Source of the DNA: Synechocystis sp. PCC 6803 substr. PCC-P
GTDB lineage: Bacteria; Cyanobacteriota; Cyanobacteriia; Cyanobacteriales; Microcystaceae
Reading direction: 5' to 3'
DNA: 32,000 bases
NCBI RefSeq assembly: GCF_000284455.1
Contig: NC_017039.1
Coordinates: 1,740,001-1,772,000, forward strand
This document shows, in pieces, positions 6,548 through 25,953 of this stretch. The notes below the pieces were generated by a model. It was given only the letters and a program-made list of their open reading frames with translations. It did not search any database and had not been told where the DNA came from. Positions within the stretch are counted from its first letter, which is position 1. Every line of letters begins with the position of its first letter. The translations under genes were made by a program, and so were the position numbers.

Positions 6548-7921
6548 CTAAGTGGGCAGATGGGAGCGGTTCAGACTAGAAAGATCCACTCGGCCAAAAT
6601 GAATGCTAAACGCAACCTGCATATTCTCCAAGGTTTTCACTAGCCAAGGTACCCCTTCCCGGGCCACCGACTCATAATGATTAAACAAAATTGAAAAACG
6701 TTTTTCCAAATAAGGCTTAACCTTGGAGCAGAAAAGCACAATTTTTAGCAATACGCCAATGGTCTTCTTCACACCAATATTGGAAATTAGATCAATAAAG
6801 ACATAGTGATCAGGATTTTTGCTACCTTCCACCACCAAAAAGTTGAGCAACTGACTAGAAGTCCGCATCATTAAAAATTCTGTTGGCTTCTGTTGATTGC
6901 ACTCTGGATAGGCATTTTGGAATAGATCAAATAATTTCTTATCAAAACTTCCTTGTTTGTAATTATTCTGTAGGGAGCCCCGGATATATTCGTAAAGTTC
7001 ATCCTTAAAAGTGCCAAAAGATTGGGTATAGGCCACATGGTTACGAAAACTTTTGGAAAGGGACCGGTAACTCTGACCGTTTTCCACGGAACCAACAAAA
7101 TGTTTGAGGGAACTGTTTAGATCCCGATCACTCAGTAGGGTGGGATTTTGCACGGGCTTGATCAATTCCTTATCCGGCAAGATGAGTCCGGCTTTATTAG
7201 TTCTGGCCATGCGCACCCGGTAGGTGACGTACTGAGAAAGGTTAATTTCAAACTTACGCTCATTTTGAGCTTTGATGCGGTGGATAGTTTGGCGATGTTC
7301 CCGACTGCTGTCATCCCCCATAAGACAATAATCATACAGATAGGGATAGCGGTGGATAAGGGTGCCGACGGAGCTAGATTTCGTTTCAAACTTGGTGCTG
7401 ACAACGCTGGCCAATCTTTTCAAGCGGACAAATTGTTCGCTCAAGGTAAAGTTTTTAACTAGTTGGCGGATGTTACCTTTTGTATTACCCCCGGGGCTGA
7501 TGTTAGCCACTGCTTTTTCCACCATATTTACCAGCTGGGGAATGGAACGCTGGGTTTGGGGAGAAAGTTGCCAATAGTTGATCAGAATATAGCAACAACG
7601 GTTAAAAAAGTAGTTAAATTCTTCGGTATTATTTTTAACTCTAATTACTTTTTCTAAGTGGGTAGAAACTTGTCCTTGGGAACTGCCCTGTCCGCTCAAA
7701 AAAAGATTACCCATTACTTCCAATACCCGTTCCCCTTCCACCGACTGGACCAAGTCGAGCAGATAATCATAAATTGCCTGCTCGTCATTCATTTTGTAGG
7801 GGTCGCTAGCCTGGGGATGGTTATAGTTCACAGTGGTAACCCTCTTTGGGGAAAAGGGGGCAAATTGGGAGCAGGAAAAATCGATAATGAAAACGAAATC
7901 ATGAGATAAGGTCAAAGACAC
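6548..7921 (-). CDS. Hypothetical protein with no domain I can recognise
   Basis: Long uninterrupted ORF of 457 aa from GTG at 7921. An alternative ATG at 7792 gives 414 aa starting MNDEQAIYDY. The gene is AT-rich and has no HIP1 site. It is coding by length only. Confidence 0.6.
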   Translation of the reverse strand: MSLTLSHDFVFIIDFSCSQFAPFSPKRVTTVNYNHPQASDPYKMNDEQAIYDYLLDLVQSVEGERVLEVMGNLFLSGQGSSQGQVSTHLEKVIRVKNNTEEFNYFFNRCCYILINYWQLSPQTQRSIPQLVNMVEKAVANISPGGNTKGNIRQLVKNFTLSEQFVRLKRLASVVSTKFETKSSSVGTLIHRYPYLYDYCLMGDDSSREHRQTIHRIKAQNERKFEINLSQYVTYRVRMARTNKAGLILPDKELIKPVQNPTLLSDRDLNSSLKHFVGSVENGQSYRSLSKSFRNHVAYTQSFGTFKDELYEYIRGSLQNNYKQGSFDKKLFDLFQNAYPECNQQKPTEFLMMRTSSQLLNFLVVEGSKNPDHYVFIDLISNIGVKKTIGVLLKIVLFCSKVKPYLEKRFSILFNHYESVAREGVPWLVKTLENMQVAFSIHFGRVDLSSLNRSHLPT

Positions 7922-18662: not shown

Positions 18663-18968
18663 GGTTTTGATCTGCAACCTCAACGATGGGGGCAAGGGGG
18701 GGAGAAAAACCCCAGTCACCGTCAGATTCTAACCAACACTCTCCCCAGGGGAAAGAAAACTTGGCTACAGCATCAATATTCTTTAGATTTACTTCAGATT
18801 TCCCTGCCCTAGGCGATTGATTTAGTTGAGATCGGGAAAATTTGGTATTTAACCGGTTACATGTAGTTGCGTGGAGGTGAGCAATACACTTAAGCTATTT
18901 TATCTGGTGAATTAAATTTGAAGTTATTCTTGTGGCTATCATGGGAGTAATTGCTTCCCATCACAGCT

Positions 18969-21452
18969 ATGGATAAACCCAGTTCCTTTTTCGTTGTAGA
19001 TTCTGAAGGTTCTCAAATACTTAGGGAAATTTGCATTATTAATCACTGTGGGGAAGTGGTATATGAAGCATTGGTGGATGAAGTCTTAGCAGATCGAGCA
19101 CAGGGTTTAAAAGTTTTTCCTCTGAAACAGGTGTTGGAAAATTTTTGGCGCATCACCCATGGGCATTTAGTCATTTTCCATTATGCTGACCATGACTGCC
19201 GTGTCTTACGAAATAGCTGTTTGCAGGTGGGCATTCCTTGGCGGCCAATAAGCACCCAATGTACTATTGAGTTGGCCAAGGAAAAATATCCCGGCCTAAG
19301 CAGTTACTCTTTGGAGTTTTTGAGCAAAAAATTTTTCTTAAAGGTTGAAGGCAAGTATTTCAACCAAGAATCGGCGCACCGCGCTCGCTACGATGCCCTT
19401 TTCACCCACCAGTTATACAATTTTTTACAAGATTGCAACGGCTTTTCCAAATCAATGAATATTGGCATTAATCCTTTTTCTTCCAGTAGAGTTGACACCC
19501 CTTTTCAGGAACACGTTGATGCAAAAGCTATTTATCAACAACAATTTGAACAACTGAAGGCAATCATTAAGGAAGTCAGACAGGATAAAAATCGACAATC
19601 TAAGGGTGTAGTAGTGACAGGGATTCCTGGATCAGGGAAAACCCACCTGATGATGCGGCTCACCAAGGAAATTTTACAGATAAACCGAGTATTATTCATA
19701 CGCCACCCCAACAATCAAGAATCAATCATTTACCATATTTACAGCCGCATTTTAGAATCGTTCATTTATCAAATTCCCGGCACTAGTTATAGTCAGCTAG
19801 AGTTTTTGCTGGCCCATAGTTTTACTAAATTAATTAGCCAAATGAAAAATATTCGGCTGACCCAAAAAGATCAACATATAGTCGATATTGTCCAGCAAAA
19901 CCCCTTAAATATTTATCAGCTACTAGGAACGGAAGGAACAGATAAGAAACGGGATTACTGGGATCACATTGAAAAAAGAGCCAGTGAATGGTGGACAGAG
20001 CACTATGGCATTGGAGGAAATAGCCCTGAAATTATTAAGGGAATTATCAAATTTTGTCGCTATACAGAACGTTATCGTCAACAGACCACTGCACGTTGGT
20101 TGGCCGGACAAGAATTGAGTGAAGAAGATTTAATGTTATTGGGTTTGAGTAATTGGCATGAAAACCTGGGTAAGGAGGGCTTTTCCCTGGAAGCAATTTC
20201 AGTTTTCAGTAAATTATCCTTGTTGGACGAGCCGTTAGTAATGGTATTTGATCAATTGGAAGTGCTGGGTTTACCCAAAAACCAGAGCTTATTAATTGGC
20301 TTCGGCGAAGCGCTTAAGGAAATTTTTACCCATGTGCCCAACTGTTTGGTTATCCTAAACCTTTTTCCAGATCGGTGGCAATATTTTCAGTCCCATTGGG
20401 ATTCTTCCGTGGTGGAAAGGGTAGGCCAATATCACATTAATCTTGACCGTCCAGACGATCAATTGATGGGTCAGGTGTTGATGACCAAGGCTGATGCAGT
20501 AGGGGTTAAGCTCACGGATATATTTAGTGAGCAAGAAATTACCTCCCTTTTGCGCTCACCGTCAATTCGTCACTTGATCAATAATGCTTCCAAACTTTAT
20601 TCTGCTAAGGCTAATGGATCTGGCATCATCCCTCAGAATTTCGACCTTGGTAACAAAAATCTTGATTTCGAGCAAAGATTAAATTTACTGGAAAATGGAT
20701 TAAGTGATTTGCAAGCAAAAATTTACGACATTGGCTTGACTTTAACAAACTTTTTTGCTCCTACAAGCCAGAATGTAAGCAAAGCATTAATTGGTAATCC
20801 CGTGGGGGAAACTAATCAAAATAATGAAATTGACGCTGATCTTAATTTCAATTTTTTCATTACAGAAAATCAGTCGCAACAATCGCTAGAAATACAGGTA
20901 AAAGATTTCTTCTGCCAAAATCGTGAAATCTTAAAAGATGATTATCAAAAACTACAAATAATCACTGAATCCGATGATATTGGCAAACTAAAAATTATTT
21001 TGGAAGCCCTTAACTCAATACACTCTTTCAAAACTGATTTTCTTAGTCTGGGCAGAAAAAGGTTACCAGAACATATCTTGATTCGTACCGCTAAAGCCTC
21101 AACAGTCATCGCATTTTTGCACCGCGATGGTAGTCAATTTACCAACTATATTAAGAACTTTAATCAATTGGTGTCATTGGAGAAGAGGCATCAATTTCAC
21201 CTCTGGCGAGATCGACGGCAAAAGGCTATCACCGGCAAAGTTGGCCGGGAAGAAATTGAAAAACTCAATAATTCTGCCAACGGACAATTTCAATTTATGG
21301 AAGAGCGGGAACGGGTGGACTTTGAGCTGTTGTATTTGTTGATCACAGCAATTTATAACCAGGACATAGAGCTGGAAATAGGGCAGGCTTGGTCGATCGC
21401 CTGTGGGGAATTAAGGCATAACTGGTTGGTTCAACTGTTAGACCATGGTTGA
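18969..21452 (+). CDS. Fusion protein: N-terminal DEDDh (DnaQ-like) 3'-5' exonuclease, central P-loop NTPase, uncharacterised C-terminal region
   Basis: Residues are numbered from the TTG at 18951. Exo I is VVDSEG (D17/E19, nt 18999-19007). Exo II is HYADHDCRVL (D82, nt 19194-19196). Exo III is H143-x4-D148 (AHRARYDAL, nt 19377-19394). Walker A is GIPGSGKT (nt 19620-19643). A Walker-B-like stretch is LSLLDEPLVMVFDQLE (nt 20214-20261). I could not assign the last ~350 aa. The probable ATG start is at 18969 (MDKPSSFF). Confidence 0.8.
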   Translation: MDKPSSFFVVDSEGSQILREICIINHCGEVVYEALVDEVLADRAQGLKVFPLKQVLENFWRITHGHLVIFHYADHDCRVLRNSCLQVGIPWRPISTQCTIELAKEKYPGLSSYSLEFLSKKFFLKVEGKYFNQESAHRARYDALFTHQLYNFLQDCNGFSKSMNIGINPFSSSRVDTPFQEHVDAKAIYQQQFEQLKAIIKEVRQDKNRQSKGVVVTGIPGSGKTHLMMRLTKEILQINRVLFIRHPNNQESIIYHIYSRILESFIYQIPGTSYSQLEFLLAHSFTKLISQMKNIRLTQKDQHIVDIVQQNPLNIYQLLGTEGTDKKRDYWDHIEKRASEWWTEHYGIGGNSPEIIKGIIKFCRYTERYRQQTTARWLAGQELSEEDLMLLGLSNWHENLGKEGFSLEAISVFSKLSLLDEPLVMVFDQLEVLGLPKNQSLLIGFGEALKEIFTHVPNCLVILNLFPDRWQYFQSHWDSSVVERVGQYHINLDRPDDQLMGQVLMTKADAVGVKLTDIFSEQEITSLLRSPSIRHLINNASKLYSAKANGSGIIPQNFDLGNKNLDFEQRLNLLENGLSDLQAKIYDIGLTLTNFFAPTSQNVSKALIGNPVGETNQNNEIDADLNFNFFITENQSQQSLEIQVKDFFCQNREILKDDYQKLQIITESDDIGKLKIILEALNSIHSFKTDFLSLGRKRLPEHILIRTAKASTVIAFLHRDGSQFTNYIKNFNQLVSLEKRHQFHLWRDRRQKAITGKVGREEIEKLNNSANGQFQFMEERERVDFELLYLLITAIYNQDIELEIGQAWSIACGELRHNWLVQLLDHG

Positions 21453-21481: not shown

Positions 21482-21907
21482 CTAGCCTTTAAGGCTATAG
21501 ACACGCTGCCATTGCTCTTCTGTGACCCGAAAGTTGGTGCTGTTGGGAGCCCGAATAACCAGTAAATCCCGTAAAATCTGGTCCTGTTTGAGTTCGTGGC
21601 GGCGGAGGGGTTGGCCCAGCAACTTGCGTAGGAATCTGAGCTGTACCCTCGGTTTATCCAACTTAGCTTGGTCAGACATTAGCCAATATTGCCCATCGGG
21701 TAGCTCTGGGTAAATTTCCGGCGGCTTAGTTACTTCGGCAATGGCATAAATCCCTGCTTCTGGCCCGGCCATCCAGATCAAAGCCCGATCGCCAACTTGA
21801 ATTTCTTTGCTATAACGGGTCACCAACCAGGGCAATTCCTCTTGCTCCTCAATGGCTTGAAGAATGCGATAGTACTTAGGATTGCCTTGAAATAACCAGT
21901 AGGCCAT
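21482..21907 (-). CDS. Stand-alone EVE-domain (PUA-like) protein
   Basis: MAYWLFQGNPKYYRILQAIEE...WLVTRYSKEIQVGDRALIWMAGPEAGIYAIAEV matches the usual EVE pattern as I remember it (YWLfq.NP...W.v.r....i..GD....w..g...GIyaiaev). 141 aa. Its stop lies 29 nt from the stop of the convergent fusion gene. Confidence 0.7.
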   Translation of the reverse strand: MAYWLFQGNPKYYRILQAIEEQEELPWLVTRYSKEIQVGDRALIWMAGPEAGIYAIAEVTKPPEIYPELPDGQYWLMSDQAKLDKPRVQLRFLRKLLGQPLRRHELKQDQILRDLLVIRAPNSTNFRVTEEQWQRVYSLKG

Positions 21908-22028: not shown

Positions 22029-22412
22029 ATGACAAAGACAAGAGAGGCGAAAAAGACAGTACAGTGTGTAGACACATATAGTGAATTGTATAAAGATATA
22101 TTTCCAGAAGTGAGGTCTTATGAGTCATTTAAATATATCATTGTGGGAATATTAAGTGATATAAAAAGAAAGAGTCTACCTGCAATAGCATCATCACTAG
22201 GATTGAAAAATGAACAGGGACTACTGCATTTTATGACAGATTCTCCTTGGGAATTAAAAGAATTAGAAAAAAGAAGATTAAATATTATCTTAGAAGTTTT
22301 AGAAGGAAGAGAAATAATAGTAATAATAGATGAAACAGGAGACCCCAAAAAAAGGGAAAACAACAGATTATGTAAAAAGACAATACATTGGAAATTTAGG
22401 AAAAATAGAAAC
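22029..22412 (+). pseudogene. N-terminal fragment of a DDE transposase (IS701/IS4-superfamily-like), frameshifted and truncated
   Basis: ...KRKSLPAIASSLGLKNEQGLLHFMTDSPWELKELEKRRLNIILEVL.GREIIVIIDETGDPKK continues in the +1 frame as GKTTDYVKRQYIGNLGKIE, after an A7 run at 22347-22353. The similarity then stops, and no DDE catalytic core is present. The segment is extremely AT-rich: 12/60 G+C in nt 22261-22320 by hand count. Confidence 0.7.
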
Positions 22413-22419
22413 CCGACTT

Positions 22420-22601
22420 TTAATGTGGGGTAATAGAACGCCCAGCAAATTAATAACCAAATCATCGTGGGGAATACTGCTACCAGTCATAGCTAGGATT
22501 TCCCCGTCAATGTACTCGTGGCAGATTTCTTGTTTCGCTTCCCAGGCTAGATATTCCTCTGGGGTCAATGGGGTCGGTCGGAGGTCGGGCGAAGCAATCA
22601 T
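22420..22601 (-). pseudogene. N-terminal stub of a Uma2-family (DUF820, PD-(D/E)xK-like) endonuclease gene
   Basis: MIASPDLRPTPLTPEEYLAWEAKQEICHEYIDGEILAMTGSSIPHDDLVINLLGVLL is the typical Uma2 N-terminus. The frame then runs into antisense transposase DNA and stops, leaving about 60 of an expected ~190 aa. The boundary at about 22412-22421 is approximate. Confidence 0.6.
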
Positions 22602-22622
22602 GGTTAATTTGCCGCCAATTTG

Positions 22623-22630
22623 GCGATCGC
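22623..22630. repeat. HIP1 octamer; the first copy after the stretch with no HIP1
   Basis: Exact GCGATCGC. Confidence 0.85.
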
Positions 22631-22753
22631 CATTAGGTTGATCAACAATCACATTTACATTTTAAATTAAAGACAAGTTTTCCAAAATCGACCGAATATC
22701 GCCGTAAACCTGTGGGAAAATCCCTTCAATCATATTTTTAATCCCCCGTCCCT

Positions 22754-23866
22754 ATGAAACGCCGTCAACTCCTTGGCCAATCGGCGATCGCCGCTGGAAC
22801 TGCTGCTGGTTTAGTTGCCTGTGGCAAGGCCACCACCTCCAATAATCAAGCCACCGCTGGAGGAGAACTGCCAAATATTCGTTGGCGCATGGTCACCAGT
22901 TGGCCCAAATCCCTCGACACTCTTTTTGGGGGCGCTGAGGACTTCTGCAAGGCGATCGCCGCCATGACCGGGGGTAAATTCCAGATTACGCCCTACGCCG
23001 CTGGGGAAATTGTGCCGGGGTTAGAGGTGCTAGACGCAGTACAAAATGGCACCGTTGAATGTGGCCACACCGCCAGTTATTACTACATCGGCAAAAATCC
23101 GGCCCTGGGTTTTGCCTGCGTGATGCCCTTTGGTTTGACGGCCCAACAACAAAATGCATGGCTCTATGCCGGGGGGGGGTTGGAAATGATCCAAAAAGTT
23201 TACAGCGACTTTAATATCATTAACTTCACCGCCGGTAACACCGGGGCTCAGATGGCTGGTTGGTTTAAAAAGCCAGTGGAATCCCTAGCGGATTTGCGGG
23301 GTTTAAAAATGCGGATTCCCGGCTTGGGAGGGCAGGTAATGGCTCAACTAGGGGTCAACGTCCAGGTGATTCCTGGGGGAGAACTATTCCTAGCTCTAGA
23401 CCGGGGCACCATTGACGCAGCGGAATGGGTAGGGCCCTACGACGACGAAAAGTTAGGGCTAAATAAGGCGGCCAAATACTATTACTATCCCGGTTGGTGG
23501 GAGCCAGGCCCCAGCTTGGACGTATTGGTAAACCAAAGCCAATGGGCGAAATTGCCGCCGGAATACCAAGCTATTTTCCAGGAAGCGGCCCGTAGTGCCA
23601 ATCTATTGATGCTATCCCGTTATGAAACTTTTAATAGCATTGCCCTGAAAACATTACTGGATGGAGGCACAATTCTGAAATCCTTTTCTCCAGAAATTTT
23701 AACAGTGGCCCAGGAAACTTCCCGAGCATTGCTAGCAGAATTTGCCAGTAAAGATGCCCAATTTAAGGAAATTTATCAACAATGGCAAACATTCCGCAGT
23801 CAAATGTTTAGTTGGAATGCAATCAATGAACTTAGCTATACTAAATTCGTCGAAAAAGCTCCCTAA
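22754..23866 (+). CDS. TRAP-type (DctP family) periplasmic solute-binding protein, Tat/lipoprotein signal
   Basis: MKRRQLLGQSAIAAGTAAGLVACG combines a twin-Arg signal with a lipobox. A DctP-like body follows (RWRMVTSWPKSLD..., GLKMRIPGLGGQV, GTIDAAEWVGPYDD). No DctQ or DctM membrane genes lie nearby. Confidence 0.82.
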   Translation: MKRRQLLGQSAIAAGTAAGLVACGKATTSNNQATAGGELPNIRWRMVTSWPKSLDTLFGGAEDFCKAIAAMTGGKFQITPYAAGEIVPGLEVLDAVQNGTVECGHTASYYYIGKNPALGFACVMPFGLTAQQQNAWLYAGGGLEMIQKVYSDFNIINFTAGNTGAQMAGWFKKPVESLADLRGLKMRIPGLGGQVMAQLGVNVQVIPGGELFLALDRGTIDAAEWVGPYDDEKLGLNKAAKYYYYPGWWEPGPSLDVLVNQSQWAKLPPEYQAIFQEAARSANLLMLSRYETFNSIALKTLLDGGTILKSFSPEILTVAQETSRALLAEFASKDAQFKEIYQQWQTFRSQMFSWNAINELSYTKFVEKAP

Positions 23867-25953
23867 CCGAGGCAAAATCTTTGGAAATTGCCTTCTGCTA
23901 GGAAAGCCGTAATTTCTGCTTCTGAAAGGGGATGACTAAACCAATAACCTTGCATTTCTCGGCAACCTAAATCGTAGAGACAACGAGCTTGGGGCTCCTC
24001 CTCTATACCTTCAGCAATAATGTTTAAATTAAAACCATTGCCCAACAGCAGCATGGCCTGAATAATGGCAGCATCCTTGGGGGTGTGGAGGATATCTTTA
24101 GTAAAGGAACGATCAATTTTCAGGGTATTGAAAGGAAAGGTTTTAAGATAGGAAAGGGAAGAATAGCCAGTGCCAAAATCATCCATGGAAAGCCGAATAC
24201 CGTGGGATTGCAGAGCATTGAGGAGATTTTGGGTAGCTGTGACGTTCTGCATGACAATATTTTCGGTAATTTCCACCTCAAGACGATGGGGAGGGAGGGA
24301 AGACTCTGCCAAAATACGTAAAATTGTTGGCAACAAATCCGGAGCTTGGAACTGTTGGGGAGACAGATTAATGGCAATGCGAAAATCATCGTCTACCGCC
24401 GGAGCCCAATGGTGGAAATGTTGAAAAGCTGTACGCATAATCCATTCCCCCACGGGAATAATTAGGCCAGTGGTTTCCAGCAAACCAATGAATAATCCTG
24501 GAGATACTAAACCGTGAATGGGATGTTGCCAACGAATCAGAGCTTCCACTCCACAAAGGCGACCGGATTGCACATCAATAATCGGTTGGTAATAAAGCAA
24601 GAATTCATCCCTTTCCAAAGCCTGGTGTAGGGCATGCTCCAATTGAATTCTTTCTAAATGGTCACTATTCATGGACTCTTCATAGAAGCAGTATTGCCGA
24701 CTGCCGATGTCCTTAACTTCGTTTAATGCTATTCCCACTCGGTTCAGCAAAATTTCCACGTTATCACCATGGTTGGGATAACAGGCAATGCCCGCATAGC
24801 CCTGGAGGTAAAGGGGATTATTAGCAATGAAAAATGGTCTTTTTAGCACTGCCAACAGTCGTCGCACAAAAACTTCAATTTCGTCGAGGTTACGGCAGGA
24901 TTGAATTAACAATATAAAAGTATCTCCACGCCACCGGCAAAGTAAATCTTCTAATCTCACATGGGCGGATAATCTTTCCGTGATAATTTTGAGTACTTCA
25001 TCGGCGACGCTGTGCCCCAGCAAGTCATTTAAAGATTGCAGTTCTCGGAAACCTAAAAGCACTAAACCTAAAACACTGCTTTGATTCTGAACGTTACTTA
25101 GGACTTTACCCAATTCTTGCTTGAACAAAAAGCGGTTGGGCAAGTCCGTTAGGGGATCATAAAAAGCTTGGTAATGAATTGATTGCTCAATTACTTTACG
25201 CTCTGTGATATCGAAAATGTAACTACGTATAAACTGACTTTCGGCGGGATAGTGAATATGTTGCTCATAAAATTTATCTCCTATTTGTACCTCTCTAGTG
25301 CGGAGATAGTAAATGGGAGTATCTTCCCTTTGGGGAATAATATCTTTGAGTAGGGGATGGGCCATGGAATCTTTCTGAATGGAGGGAAACTTTTCCTTAG
25401 TAGCTGTGTTCAGATAGGTCAAGTTGCCGAAGTAATCGATCTCCACCATGGGGTAGGGACTATATTCAATACAGGCGGCTAGTTTAGATAGCTTTTCATG
25501 GCTCAGTTGGGATAAGTCATCCTCGTGGCCAATCAGAGTGATGTCCCATTGTTCCTGGGGAAAATGCTCTGATAGATCTGGGGTTAACCGCTGGCGATCG
25601 CCGCCGCCGGAGATAGTATCTTTGGGGTCGGTGGGGATGGCCTGATAGAAAATTTGAATATCTTCCGATAGGGCGATGACGTCTCCATGCACCAACTCAT
25701 AATCTAGATGGGATTCACCGTTAACCCACACTCCATTACGACTGCGATGACCTTCTAAATCTCCATCAATGATGTGGAAGGAGATATCTAAATTAGGATT
25801 AATTTTTTTGATTAGGGTGGCGTGGCGACGGGAAATTTGGGGAGAAGGAATAACAATGGTGTTGCTCGGATGACGGCCAATGGAATAACAAGAATTTTGT
25901 AAACGAATGACCTTTTTAAACGAGGGTGAATCAACGACCAATTGATAAAGCAT
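23863..25953 (-). CDS. FHA - PAS-like - degenerate GGDEF - EAL signalling protein (probable c-di-GMP phosphodiesterase)
   Basis: FHA motifs are present (SIGRHPSNTIVIPSPQISRRHATL...SRNGVWVNG). The GGDEF domain has its active-site motif degenerated to RGDTF. The EAL domain has EALIRW, DDFGTGYSS, KIDRSF and EGIE intact. 696 aa. Confidence 0.88.
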   Translation of the reverse strand: MLYQLVVDSPSFKKVIRLQNSCYSIGRHPSNTIVIPSPQISRRHATLIKKINPNLDISFHIIDGDLEGHRSRNGVWVNGESHLDYELVHGDVIALSEDIQIFYQAIPTDPKDTISGGGDRQRLTPDLSEHFPQEQWDITLIGHEDDLSQLSHEKLSKLAACIEYSPYPMVEIDYFGNLTYLNTATKEKFPSIQKDSMAHPLLKDIIPQREDTPIYYLRTREVQIGDKFYEQHIHYPAESQFIRSYIFDITERKVIEQSIHYQAFYDPLTDLPNRFLFKQELGKVLSNVQNQSSVLGLVLLGFRELQSLNDLLGHSVADEVLKIITERLSAHVRLEDLLCRWRGDTFILLIQSCRNLDEIEVFVRRLLAVLKRPFFIANNPLYLQGYAGIACYPNHGDNVEILLNRVGIALNEVKDIGSRQYCFYEESMNSDHLERIQLEHALHQALERDEFLLYYQPIIDVQSGRLCGVEALIRWQHPIHGLVSPGLFIGLLETTGLIIPVGEWIMRTAFQHFHHWAPAVDDDFRIAINLSPQQFQAPDLLPTILRILAESSLPPHRLEVEITENIVMQNVTATQNLLNALQSHGIRLSMDDFGTGYSSLSYLKTFPFNTLKIDRSFTKDILHTPKDAAIIQAMLLLGNGFNLNIIAEGIEEEPQARCLYDLGCREMQGYWFSHPLSEAEITAFLAEGNFQRFCLG

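Follow-up and report, generated by a model that had tools for sequence, protein, structure and literature searches.

The closest described relatives of the protein analysed here are the Orc/CDC6 gene neighbourhoods outlined in a computational study (PMC10853773, Nucleic Acids Research 2024), in which an inactive restriction endonuclease-like domain (iREase) lies between the AAA+ core and a C-terminal domain of the winged helix-turn-helix (wHTH) type, and which also contain an active restriction endonuclease (REase), HerA/FtsK ATPases (some with FtsKalpha), wHTH proteins and, in some cases, a 3'-to-5' exonuclease. That study predicts a counter-invader role, the Orc/CDC6 part localising the apparatus on DNA and HerA/FtsK pumping the invader DNA, and the prediction is repeated in PMC12839542. 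Here we analyse slr1959, a gene annotated as a hypothetical protein in a 32,000-nucleotide stretch of the chromosome of Synechocystis sp. PCC 6803 substr. PCC-P (NC_017039.1, positions 1,740,001 to 1,772,000; hereafter the window, to which all coordinates refer unless a locus is named). The core of slr1959 is of an already predicted kind, the class having been outlined computationally elsewhere, while its full architecture, a DEDDh exonuclease followed by an Orc/Cdc6-type AAA+ domain with an expanded insert, a coiled coil and an iREase-like module, is absent from PADLOC and from the literature searched. Our favoured reading, to which we give a probability of roughly 45%, is that slr1959 may be a stand-alone, ATP-regulated, DNA-directed 3'-to-5' exonuclease derived from the Orc/CDC6 AAA+ and inactive-REase core of the predicted counter-invader systems.

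slr1959 has in common with this HerA/FtsK capture class an Orc/Cdc6-like AAA+ domain that bears an insertion and, after it, a putatively REase-like module without a canonical site, and its family shares the mobile and patchy distribution and the nuclease association described in PMC10853773. It differs in that neither HerA/FtsK nor an active REase is fused to it or encoded within 10 kb, that an exonuclease is fused N-terminally to the Orc/CDC6 protein, that a coiled-coil hairpin is placed between the lid and the REase-like module, and that it is a stand-alone gene found mostly in housekeeping contexts, its terminal wHTH being unconfirmed. The BrxC/PglY/DUF499/DUF6079 ATPases of BREX and BREX-related systems are of the Orc/Cdc6 clade as well; their AAA+ domain likewise carries an insert behind strand 2, an arginine finger and a helical bundle, and alpha+beta and coiled-coil parts come after it. 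Relatives of slr1959 give weak Pfam DUF6079 and BrxC_BrxD matches, and one gene of the sister family described below adjoins an MmeI/Eco57I-type methyltransferase; however, slr1959 itself stays below the thresholds of these families and its loci lack PglZ, BrxA/B and PglX. In BrxC the domains come in another order (wHTH, alpha+beta, wHTH), and the protein is 1200-1300 residues long (PMC12839542).

Other described proteins resemble slr1959 in part. In Avs/AVAST and other single-gene STAND defence proteins, too, one polypeptide carries a nuclease effector at its N-terminus, a P-loop switch in the middle and a further module at the C-terminus, and the P-loop of slr1959 gives nSTAND-type matches, whereas its nucleoside triphosphatase (NTPase) domain is AAA+/Orc-Cdc6-like, it has no repeat sensors and its C-terminal module is conserved; a DEDDh effector is not reported for the Avs families in the surveys searched. 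The DEDDh fold and catalytic pentad are common to slr1959, Cas2-DEDDh and the CRISPR-associated DnaQ domain (8fyc, 8h2f), PolC/DnaQ and S. aureus DinG, the last of which also has its exonuclease fused N-terminally to an NTP-driven DNA enzyme, but the partner in slr1959 is an AAA+ domain and not Cas2, a polymerase or an SF2 helicase. In KAP NTPases such as PifA, for which a phage-exclusion role is implied, a long insertion likewise separates Walker A from Walker B, and the distribution is sporadic and plasmid-prone. A distant Pseudanabaena relative of slr1959 passes the Pfam KAP_NTPase threshold (24.8 against 20); slr1959 itself has no KAP_NTPase match at E <= 1, and its insertion, made of soluble helices, lacks the transmembrane helices that KAP insertions often contain.

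Results

Domain architecture of slr1959

The slr1959 reading frame starts at an ATG at 18969 and ends with a TGA, giving 827 residues. An in-frame alternative start (TTG at 18951) gives an 833-residue version, and database entries exist for both lengths (BAA18183.1 and BAM51935.1, among others). The features, with the evidence for each in brackets, are as follows; residues are numbered from the ATG.

18969 to 21452, + strand: slr1959 coding sequence, 827 residues and stop codon at 21450 to 21452 (exact match to slr1959/BAA18183.1; homologues begin near the ATG)
18969 to 19433, + strand: DEDDh (DnaQ/RNase T-fold) 3'-to-5' exonuclease domain, residues 1-155 (profile matches, Foldseek, conserved catalytic residues)
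18993 to 19010, + strand: Exo I motif, VVDSEG
19179 to 19199, + strand: Exo II motif, HYADHDC
19377 to 19394, + strand: Exo III motif, HRARYD
19434 to 19535, + strand: conserved linker, an N-terminal extension of the NTPase core, residues 156-189, with the NPFSSSRVDTPFQEH motif (conservation; sister-family homology)
19536 to 19775, + strand: N-terminal half of the AAA+ core, residues 190-269 (AAA_16 match; strand, P-loop and helix)
19620 to 19643, + strand: Walker A, GIPGSGKT, residues 218-225
19776 to 20168, + strand: helical insertion of ~130 residues, residues ~270-400 (model helices within 276-391, predicted local distance difference test (pLDDT) 78-94)
20169 to 20453, + strand: C-terminal half of the AAA+ core, residues 401-495 (model strands 423-427, 459-465 and 488-492)
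20235 to 20261, + strand: Walker B, LVMVFDQLE
20358 to 20360, + strand: sensor-1 N464
20418 to 20420, + strand: candidate arginine finger R484
20454 to 20618, + strand: AAA+ lid, a C-terminal helical bundle, residues 496-550
20562 to 20570, + strand: SIR motif with sensor-2 R534
20661 to 20948, + strand: two long helices, residues 567-596 and 633-659, read as a coiled-coil hairpin (model helices; coiled-coil-type PDB matches only)
20757 to 20864, + strand: low-complexity Asn/Gln tip loop, residues 597-632 (disordered, pLDDT <50)
20949 to 21449, + strand: C-terminal alpha/beta module and, within it, a following helical part, residues 661-827 (model, weak REase-like matches, conservation)

The N-terminal domain belongs to the DEDDh (DnaQ/RNase T) superfamily. 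The five catalytic residues that the original prediction had recognised as D17, E19, D82, H143 and D148 in the 833-residue numbering are D11, E13, D76, H137 and D142 from the ATG, and each of them recurs in 76-79 of the 79 independent family members taken from genomes. The Pfam RNase_T match of slr1959 is marginal (24.8 bits against a cut-off of 24), its homologues reach 27-33 bits, and the PADLOC model for CRISPR-associated DEDDh proteins matches slr1959 at 2.8e-11. To the structural side, an AlphaFold2 model of slr1959 was built from a 68-sequence alignment (mean pLDDT 84, predicted template modelling score (pTM) 0.70) and compared with the PDB by Foldseek. Its N-terminal domain superposes on solved DnaQ domains, including the CRISPR-associated DnaQ domain of S. 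thermophilus (8h2f; template modelling score (TM) 0.69, root-mean-square deviation 3.8 Å), with further matches to Cas2-DEDDh (8fyc_K, TMt 0.67), the PolC exonuclease (2p1j) and RNase T. In sequence and structure together, the best matches of this domain are DNA exonucleases, namely PolC/DnaQ, Cas2-DEDDh and Exo X.

The central NTPase is, from its motifs and the model, an Orc/Cdc6-type AAA+ domain with a lid, sensor 2 and arginine finger. The clean Walker A noticed earlier, GIPGSGKT, is invariant in the family. The Walker-B-like stretch pointed out with it does contain the Walker B motif; its functional part, however, is the beta-strand LVMVF followed by D428-Q-L-E431 and not the preceding LLDEP. 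K224, D428, E431, N464, R484 and R534 are each present in 79 of 79 members, and since the arginine finger and sensor 2 are intact, an oligomeric, ATP-hydrolysing assembly is implied. The unusually long spacing between Walker A and Walker B had been suspected to hold a helical domain, and the model places helices there, at residues ~270-400, between strand 2 (240-244) and the Walker B strand, in the position of the Orc/Cdc6 helical insert and greatly expanded. This insertion carries a conserved motif, WLAG..LSE..L..LGL..W, and both the insertion and its motifs are common to the sister family. The lid is formed by helices within residues 497-548 of the model. slr1959 passes Pfam AAA_16 (33.2 bits against a cut-off of 32.6), and Foldseek matches of the NTPase include Cdc6 (1fnn), ORC/Cdc6 (9gm5), Cdc48 and VirB4, while an NCBIfam ORC1-type model reaches E 7e-5, which is far below the cut-off of that model. 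On the P-loop, sub-threshold Pfam matches were found to nSTAND_NTPase5 (26 bits against 34, residues 188-251 only), nSTAND3 (19.8 against 27.2) and NACHT (12.7 against 26.7).

Between the two domains, the linker carries the motif NPF.S.RVDTPFQ, in which N168, P169, F170, V175, P178, F179, Q180 and D184 are invariant. Downstream of the lid, the model has two long helices that flank the tip loop and would pack as a coiled-coil hairpin. The low-complexity Asn/Gln segment and the compact terminal module that had been noticed in the last part of the protein are both real, and the proposed order holds, with the nuclease at the N-terminus, the P-loop NTPase in the middle and a separate C-terminal part last. 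The description of that last part as a variable domain does not: the C-terminal module has a mean pairwise identity of 53% among 68 homologues, to be set beside 51% for the exonuclease, 55% for the helical insertion and 73% for the two halves of the AAA+ core, and the coiled-coil helices (25%) enclose a tip loop of 10% identity with 58% gaps. The ratio of nonsynonymous to synonymous substitution rates (Ka/Ks) against an orthologue of 90% identity follows the same pattern (whole gene 0.12, N-terminal AAA+ half 0.01, C-terminal half 0.03, tip loop 0.37). Within slr1959, only this tip loop evolves fast.

Modelled alone, the C-terminal module reached a pLDDT of 94 and a pTM of 0.89. Foldseek found no significant structural neighbour for it in the PDB or in the viral library, and the weak matches (E values of 3e-3 to 0.1, probabilities up to 0.97-0.99) were recurrently REase-like: EcoT38I, Nt.BspD6I, Kpn2I, Mus81/Eme1, FAAP24, the N-domain of Rpb5, the Avs3 nuclease and phage models of a 'restriction endonuclease'. 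A canonical PD-(D/E)xK site was not found in the module: only 65 of 79 members keep E701, at the start of strand 2, and an acidic-x-Lys pattern is missing from strand 3. An active site of this type was rejected, its residues being absent or variable. D670, K673, R747, D748 and R782 are the near-invariant charged residues of the module, and a non-canonical site may be built on D670 and K673. The last ~70 residues (helix 757-768, strand 772-777, helices 779-796, 804-814 and 819-825) possibly form a wingless helix-turn-helix-like unit, for which no wHTH match was obtained. The module probably corresponds to the 'iREase (+wHTH)' part of the Orc/CDC6 conflict-system core. A profile search with the module against 1.84 billion representatives returned 156 matches, 88 of them at E <= 1e-30, and because nearly all are the same ~800-residue family or fragments of it, the module is the signature of a small family.

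A sister family without the exonuclease

The remote matches of the C-module profile were 650-690-residue proteins without the exonuclease and one protein of 1156 residues. A profile of these remote relatives retrieved a sister family, mostly planctomycete (Tundrisphaera, Tautonia, Thermostilla, Maioricimonas, Blastopirellula), in whose dominant form, of 1100-1170 residues, a HerA/DUF87-type ATPase comes after the NTPase and C-module, and a topoisomerase (Top1)-type zinc ribbon may or may not be present. The alignment of the two family profiles by hhalign has a probability of 100% and an E value of 3.9e-62 over residues 161-785 of slr1959, and the homology begins within the linker (residue 161/167). 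Since only residues 161-785 are covered, the exonuclease, which lies outside the common core, is a lineage-specific N-terminal addition. The sister NTPases pass the Pfam AAA_16 and nSTAND_NTPase5 thresholds, the long forms with 37-41 bits for nSTAND_NTPase5, so that slr1959, itself below that threshold, is at best a divergent relative.

A more distant NTPase relative, H9, is encoded on a Pseudanabaena PCC 7367 plasmid. It matches residues 167-497 of slr1959 (BLASTP E 4e-12) and shares the motifs NPF, GSGKTH, WL.G..LSE..L..LGL and FDQLE, and its gene is followed by one for a PD-(D/E)xK-FtsKalpha-FtsK protein. By their match to the published description, the sister family and this Pseudanabaena operon appear to belong to the class of PMC10853773. 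The candidate operon (L083:316-10076, pPSE7367.01) consists of a 266-residue hypothetical protein, the Orc/CDC6-type NTPase of 680 residues and the PD-(D/E)xK-FtsKalpha-FtsK fusion of 688 residues, and by analogy it exemplifies the 'capture system' layout in a cyanobacterium; a 1060-residue DEAD/DEAH helicase and a SWIM zinc-finger protein are encoded divergently from it.

Two sister loci lie in clusters of defence type, which count in favour of a counter-invader role, and the surroundings of some others are recorded here as separate observations. On the chromosome of Tundrisphaera sp. TA3 (L092:4741-19342), a tight co-directional cluster encodes an SNF2 helicase (1070 residues), the sister protein (Orc/CDC6-iREase-HerA, 1113 residues), an 86-residue open reading frame, an MmeI/Eco57I-type methyltransferase (1381 residues), an RVT_1 reverse transcriptase (679 residues) and a helicase of >1200 residues; it has the look of a composite, BREX/DISARM-like system that has not been described and includes a reverse transcriptase. 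The second such locus encodes an N6/N4 methyltransferase, SNF2 and a McrB-like GTPase along with a transposase. At L086:280-5604 (MAG contig CAYYJM010000300.1), an exonuclease-less sister gene (671 residues) lies 169 bp upstream of a co-directional gene for a DnaE-type DNA polymerase III (Pol III) alpha subunit of 1046 residues (PHP, DNA_pol3_alpha, finger, HHH_6), a single observation that may be set beside the Pol III epsilon-type domain of slr1959 itself. The 814-residue call P0278 (L093:1517-3961) begins partway into the C-module and has an FGE-sulfatase (FGS) domain at its end. We rejected it as a case of the C-module serving as the N-terminal effector of an FGS protein; from the position of its start it is probably a truncated sister long form with the FGS domain in place of the zinc ribbon. 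The remaining sister loci examined had nothing suggestive nearby.

Distribution of the family

Full-length slr1959 homologues number >800, at 43-54% identity. Among 185,579 species genomes (one genome per species) we confirmed 272 loci, a count limited to the loci recovered by two conserved peptide patterns. The hosts belong to many cyanobacterial orders, to the Beggiatoaceae (Thiomargarita, Thioploca, Parabeggiatoa and others) and to the cable bacteria, and the family is confined to cyanobacteria and their gene-exchange partners, in which it is patchy and accessory. In a neighbour-joining tree the cyanobacterial clades are taxonomically coherent. The proteobacterial sequences form a single clade of 18 loci (L019-L071, e.g. 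L028, L042 and L071), within which the Desulfobulbaceae/Electrothrix sequences are nested in the Beggiatoaceae; this arrangement implies a transfer from cyanobacteria to sulfur bacteria and another between these two groups of sediment dwellers. The family tree agrees with published gene exchange that involves cyanobacteria, Beggiatoa and further gliding bacteria of filamentous form (PMC1951784, PMC6390638). The possibility that homologues would prove to be core, syntenic and vertically inherited was thus realised in one respect: descent is largely vertical within the cyanobacterial clades, but the family is not core, is not syntenic across clades, has crossed between phyla and occurs on plasmids.

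Two copies occur in Lyngbya PCC 8106, as divergent paralogue pairs, and in Microcystaceae bin 85, as a closely related pair. Plasmid-borne copies were found in Calothrix, Nostoc, Tolypothrix, Leptolyngbya and the S. elongatus PCC 11801 and IITB strains; most copies are chromosomal, in stable housekeeping contexts. On p11801_1 (33 kb), the slr1959 homologue is divergent from parA/parB and directly upstream of a Thoeris ThsB(TIR)/ThsA(Macro) pair. This plasmid of the fast-growing biotechnology strain PCC 11801 (L081:11986-15952, L082) is largely a defence plasmid, which also carries an HNH gene, a radical SAM gene with DUF6375 and a 1331-residue ATPase, DUF87 with a metal-dependent hydrolase and an ATPase, a thermonuclease, AbiEi, a CyRepA1 replicase and ParAB. 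The position beside parAB raised the candidate of an Orc/Cdc6-like plasmid replication initiator, which was rejected, as the plasmid has its own CyRepA1 replicase and most family copies are chromosomal. Carriage by phages was likewise rejected: IMG/VR held no relative, and PHROGs matches were limited to generic exonuclease and P-loop models.

Gene neighbourhoods and composition of the locus

No neighbour gene is conserved across the 81 family loci compared, the largest neighbour cluster comprising 8 of the 81, from close relatives, and a conserved operon partner of any kind was rejected on this count. The immediate (+/-1) neighbours are mostly housekeeping genes (photolyase, S-adenosylmethionine decarboxylase, GidA, phosphoenolpyruvate-utilising enzymes, GUN4). 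PADLOC matches among 127 such neighbours were Cas1 once, the only CRISPR linkage seen, mads components twice and WYL twice. A defence setting is not a property of the family, and an association with defence islands was rejected for both the +/-1 and the +/-2,3 positions. The sole sister-type partner within 10 kb of the 81 loci is one MmeI-type methyltransferase on a Calothrix plasmid, and HerA/FtsK is likewise missing from the Pfam families of the neighbours. No active REase endonuclease is fused or adjacent in the slr1959-family loci, which have the DEDDh exonuclease instead.

The expectation that no described defence family uses a DnaQ-type exonuclease in this arrangement was borne out in what we searched. 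Against PADLOC-DB v2, slr1959 matched no system-specific model and, apart from the generic CRISPR-associated DEDDh model, gave only weak single-domain matches to PDC-S48, PDC-S41 and mad8 (E 3e-4 to 2e-3); the STAND and conflict-system surveys searched list no exonuclease effector; and literature searches (slr1959, nSTAND with exonuclease, DEDDh anti-phage ATPases) returned neither a mention of slr1959, whose annotation gives no assigned function, nor a description of its architecture.

The G+C content of slr1959 is 0.397, against 0.481 for the window, and the gene contains none of the 32 HIP1 sites of the window, where ~2.5 would be expected, a weakly significant deficit. Both had been taken as signs of a compositionally foreign gene, and the composition is indeed different; a recent acquisition, however, does not follow. 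In 63 of 73 loci the family gene is lower in G+C than the flanking DNA (median difference -4.4 points), so that the low G+C in Synechocystis is a trait of the family. An orthologue of 90% identity occupies the same block (GUN4, hexapeptide transferase, HypC, ctaB, ctaA, the gene, EVE) at locus L084, and one of 79% identity is present in Synechocystis CS-94. Recent horizontal acquisition in PCC 6803, suggested by the low G+C, the missing HIP1 sites and the nearby insertion sequence (IS) debris, was rejected in view of the family-wide AT bias, the orthologue at the same locus and the Ka/Ks. slr1959 has resided in the Synechocystis lineage for a long time; its family, taken overall, is accessory and at times mobile. 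Nor is slr1959 the sole AT-rich gene of the region, because two other genes of the window are also low in G+C, a 457-residue open reading frame (6548-7921, - strand, 0.428, without HIP1) and an FHA-GGDEF-EAL gene (23863-25953, - strand, 0.435).

The debris beside the gene is as first described and lies at 22029-22652. DDE_5 transposase fragments (22029-22641, + strand) overlap a truncated Uma2-family 'putative restriction endonuclease' (22371-22652, - strand), with a G+C of 0.33-0.37. At L084 this debris is missing, the EVE gene there being followed by a ferredoxin-dependent bilin reductase gene, so it is an insertion specific to PCC 6803. Convergent with slr1959 and 30 bp from its stop codon is a gene for a 141-residue EVE-domain protein (PUA-like, modified-base reader; 21482-21907, - strand). 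The pair also occurs at L084 and at no other family locus; the Snowella and Merismopediaceae loci have GUN4 near the family gene and no EVE. A two-gene system with the EVE gene was rejected as a feature of the family, as the adjacency is found only in Synechocystis, and a functional link between the two genes is unlikely. Promoter and terminator scans around slr1959 gave nothing above the shuffled expectation.

Discussion

A possible mechanism and the evidence that weighs against it

With the domain identities, the catalytic-residue conservation, the core homology, the DNA-related partners of the sister family and the accessory and mobile distribution computed, we infer for slr1959 an oligomeric state, a DNA substrate, an order of events and an anti-invader role, as follows. 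The AAA+ domain would bind ATP and oligomerise on DNA; the enlarged helical insert, together with the REase-like module at the C-terminus, would provide DNA contacts and target recognition; and the linker-tethered DEDDh domain would degrade free 3' ends of the captured DNA. DNA is proposed as the substrate because the partners of the sister family are double-stranded DNA translocases, REases, the Top1 zinc ribbon and methyltransferases. Candidate substrates would be incoming DNA of phages, plasmids or transformation, or else intermediates of rolling-circle and other replication. In cyanobacteria, the fused exonuclease would take the place of the HerA/FtsK translocase and the PD-(D/E)xK nuclease that are fused or adjacent in the sister family. 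A role in defence or against mobile elements is plausible from the ancestry, the accessory distribution, the plasmid carriage and the architecture, at odds that we would place a little short of even; the AT bias seen throughout the family and the hypervariable tip loop also speak for it.

Several observations weigh against this reading. The clades largely follow taxonomy and micro-synteny persists in Synechocystis and the Merismopediaceae, which points to long-term vertical maintenance, and the conservation is unusual for an immune sensor, the AAA+ core keeping its 73% identity across orders and phyla and the gene its Ka/Ks of 0.12. The neighbours are overwhelmingly housekeeping genes, with sporadic PADLOC matches at the +/-1 and +/-2,3 positions; no HerA/FtsK, REase-FtsK, SNF2, reverse transcriptase or McrB-like gene was found within 10 kb at the 81 loci; and IMG/VR viral contigs yielded no copy. 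For the C-module, the REase-like fold is drawn from weak Foldseek matches (TM 0.3-0.39), the sister family is assigned to the class of PMC10853773 by matching its description alone, and the literature searched holds no functional description of any family member.

Alternative explanations

The same vertical history would also suit a domesticated DNA-maintenance enzyme, a loader and exonuclease that trims 3' ends of the host's polyploid chromosomes in repair, recombination or replication restart and whose conflict ancestry is historical, an explanation that we regard as somewhat unlikely. It agrees with the very strong purifying selection and the 73% identity of the AAA+ core, the coherent cyanobacterial clades, the stable ctaA/ctaB position in Synechocystis, the lack of a defence-island association, and hosts that are restricted to large, filamentous or polyploid bacteria. 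The housekeeping neighbours include a photolyase in 5 Planktothrix-group loci, and one sister gene lies directly upstream of the DnaE-type Pol III alpha gene while slr1959 carries the Pol III epsilon-type domain, but these adjacencies are limited to one lineage and one locus, respectively. A maintenance enzyme would moreover not be expected to be far from universal in cyanobacteria (272 pattern-confirmed loci), duplicated in some genomes, transferred between phyla and carried on plasmids, one of them rich in defence genes, and it has no conserved partner gene or operon. Plasmid carriage could instead reflect service to mobile elements or plasmids (maintenance, incompatibility, exclusion or a selfish addiction-type gene) and not host defence, consistent with the position divergent from parA/parB on p11801_1, the IS fragments nearby in PCC 6803 and a transposase nearby in L085 and L091. 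We give this only a slim chance, in that most copies sit on chromosomes in stable contexts, p11801_1 has its own replicase, no recombinase or transposase is consistently linked, and the IS debris is missing at the orthologous locus.

The original prediction saw the logic of STAND/Avs-like and other single-gene anti-phage NTPases. In a receptor of this kind, a variable C-terminal sensor would bind a phage protein, the NTPase would oligomerise and the nuclease would destroy DNA in abortive infection. The layout of effector, switch and third domain stands, as does, by way of the sister family, a connection with conflict systems; membership of STAND/Avs does not, and we consider such a receptor very unlikely. 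In its favour are the order of the domains, the weak nSTAND_NTPase5, nSTAND3 and NACHT matches on the P-loop with the sister NTPases passing nSTAND_NTPase5, and the Avs3 nuclease domain among the weak structural matches of the C-module. However, the nSTAND_NTPase5 match is sub-threshold and confined to the P-loop segment, and no TPR, WD40 or LRR repeats were found in slr1959 by Pfam, the model showing a coiled coil and a compact alpha/beta module in their place, with no STAND arm or winged-helix 'MHD' region. The lid with its sensor-2 arginine and the arginine finger are Orc/Cdc6-like, the C-module is highly conserved, not diversifying, and of nucleic-acid-type fold in appearance, and a processive exonuclease, which needs DNA ends, would be an unusual abortive-infection effector. 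A last alternative is RNA processing, with the DEDDh domain acting on RNA 3' ends like RNase T or oligoribonuclease under control of the ATPase. Whether a DEDDh domain acts on DNA or RNA cannot be assigned from sequence alone, and RNase T is among the Foldseek matches; the best matches are nonetheless DNA exonucleases, the homologous core is coupled in the sister family to double-stranded DNA translocases, REases and a topoisomerase zinc ribbon, and the patchy distribution speaks against general RNA maturation, so that we find this explanation extremely unlikely.

Significance

A more specific version of the conflict-derived reading, which we consider unlikely, is that slr1959 is a domesticated conflict core whose pump and endonuclease were swapped for a proofreading-type exonuclease, an ATP-gated ring or loader that would trim 3' ends of incoming or replicating DNA in polyploid, naturally competent cells. 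If this were true, it could, for instance, decide what becomes of single-stranded DNA in transformation or conjugation, or act on replication intermediates that have stalled, and it would represent an unrecognised class of AAA+-controlled exonuclease across cyanobacteria, giant sulfur bacteria and cable bacteria. slr1959 belongs to the most widely used cyanobacterial model, which is tractable, naturally transformable and conjugable and thus allows a direct test of AAA+ 'capture' proteins. Should slr1959 restrict incoming DNA, as the favoured reading of an ATP-regulated DNA exonuclease would have it, this would matter for transformation efficiency and plasmid stability in biotechnology strains, among which PCC 11801 carries a homologue on a plasmid of its own.

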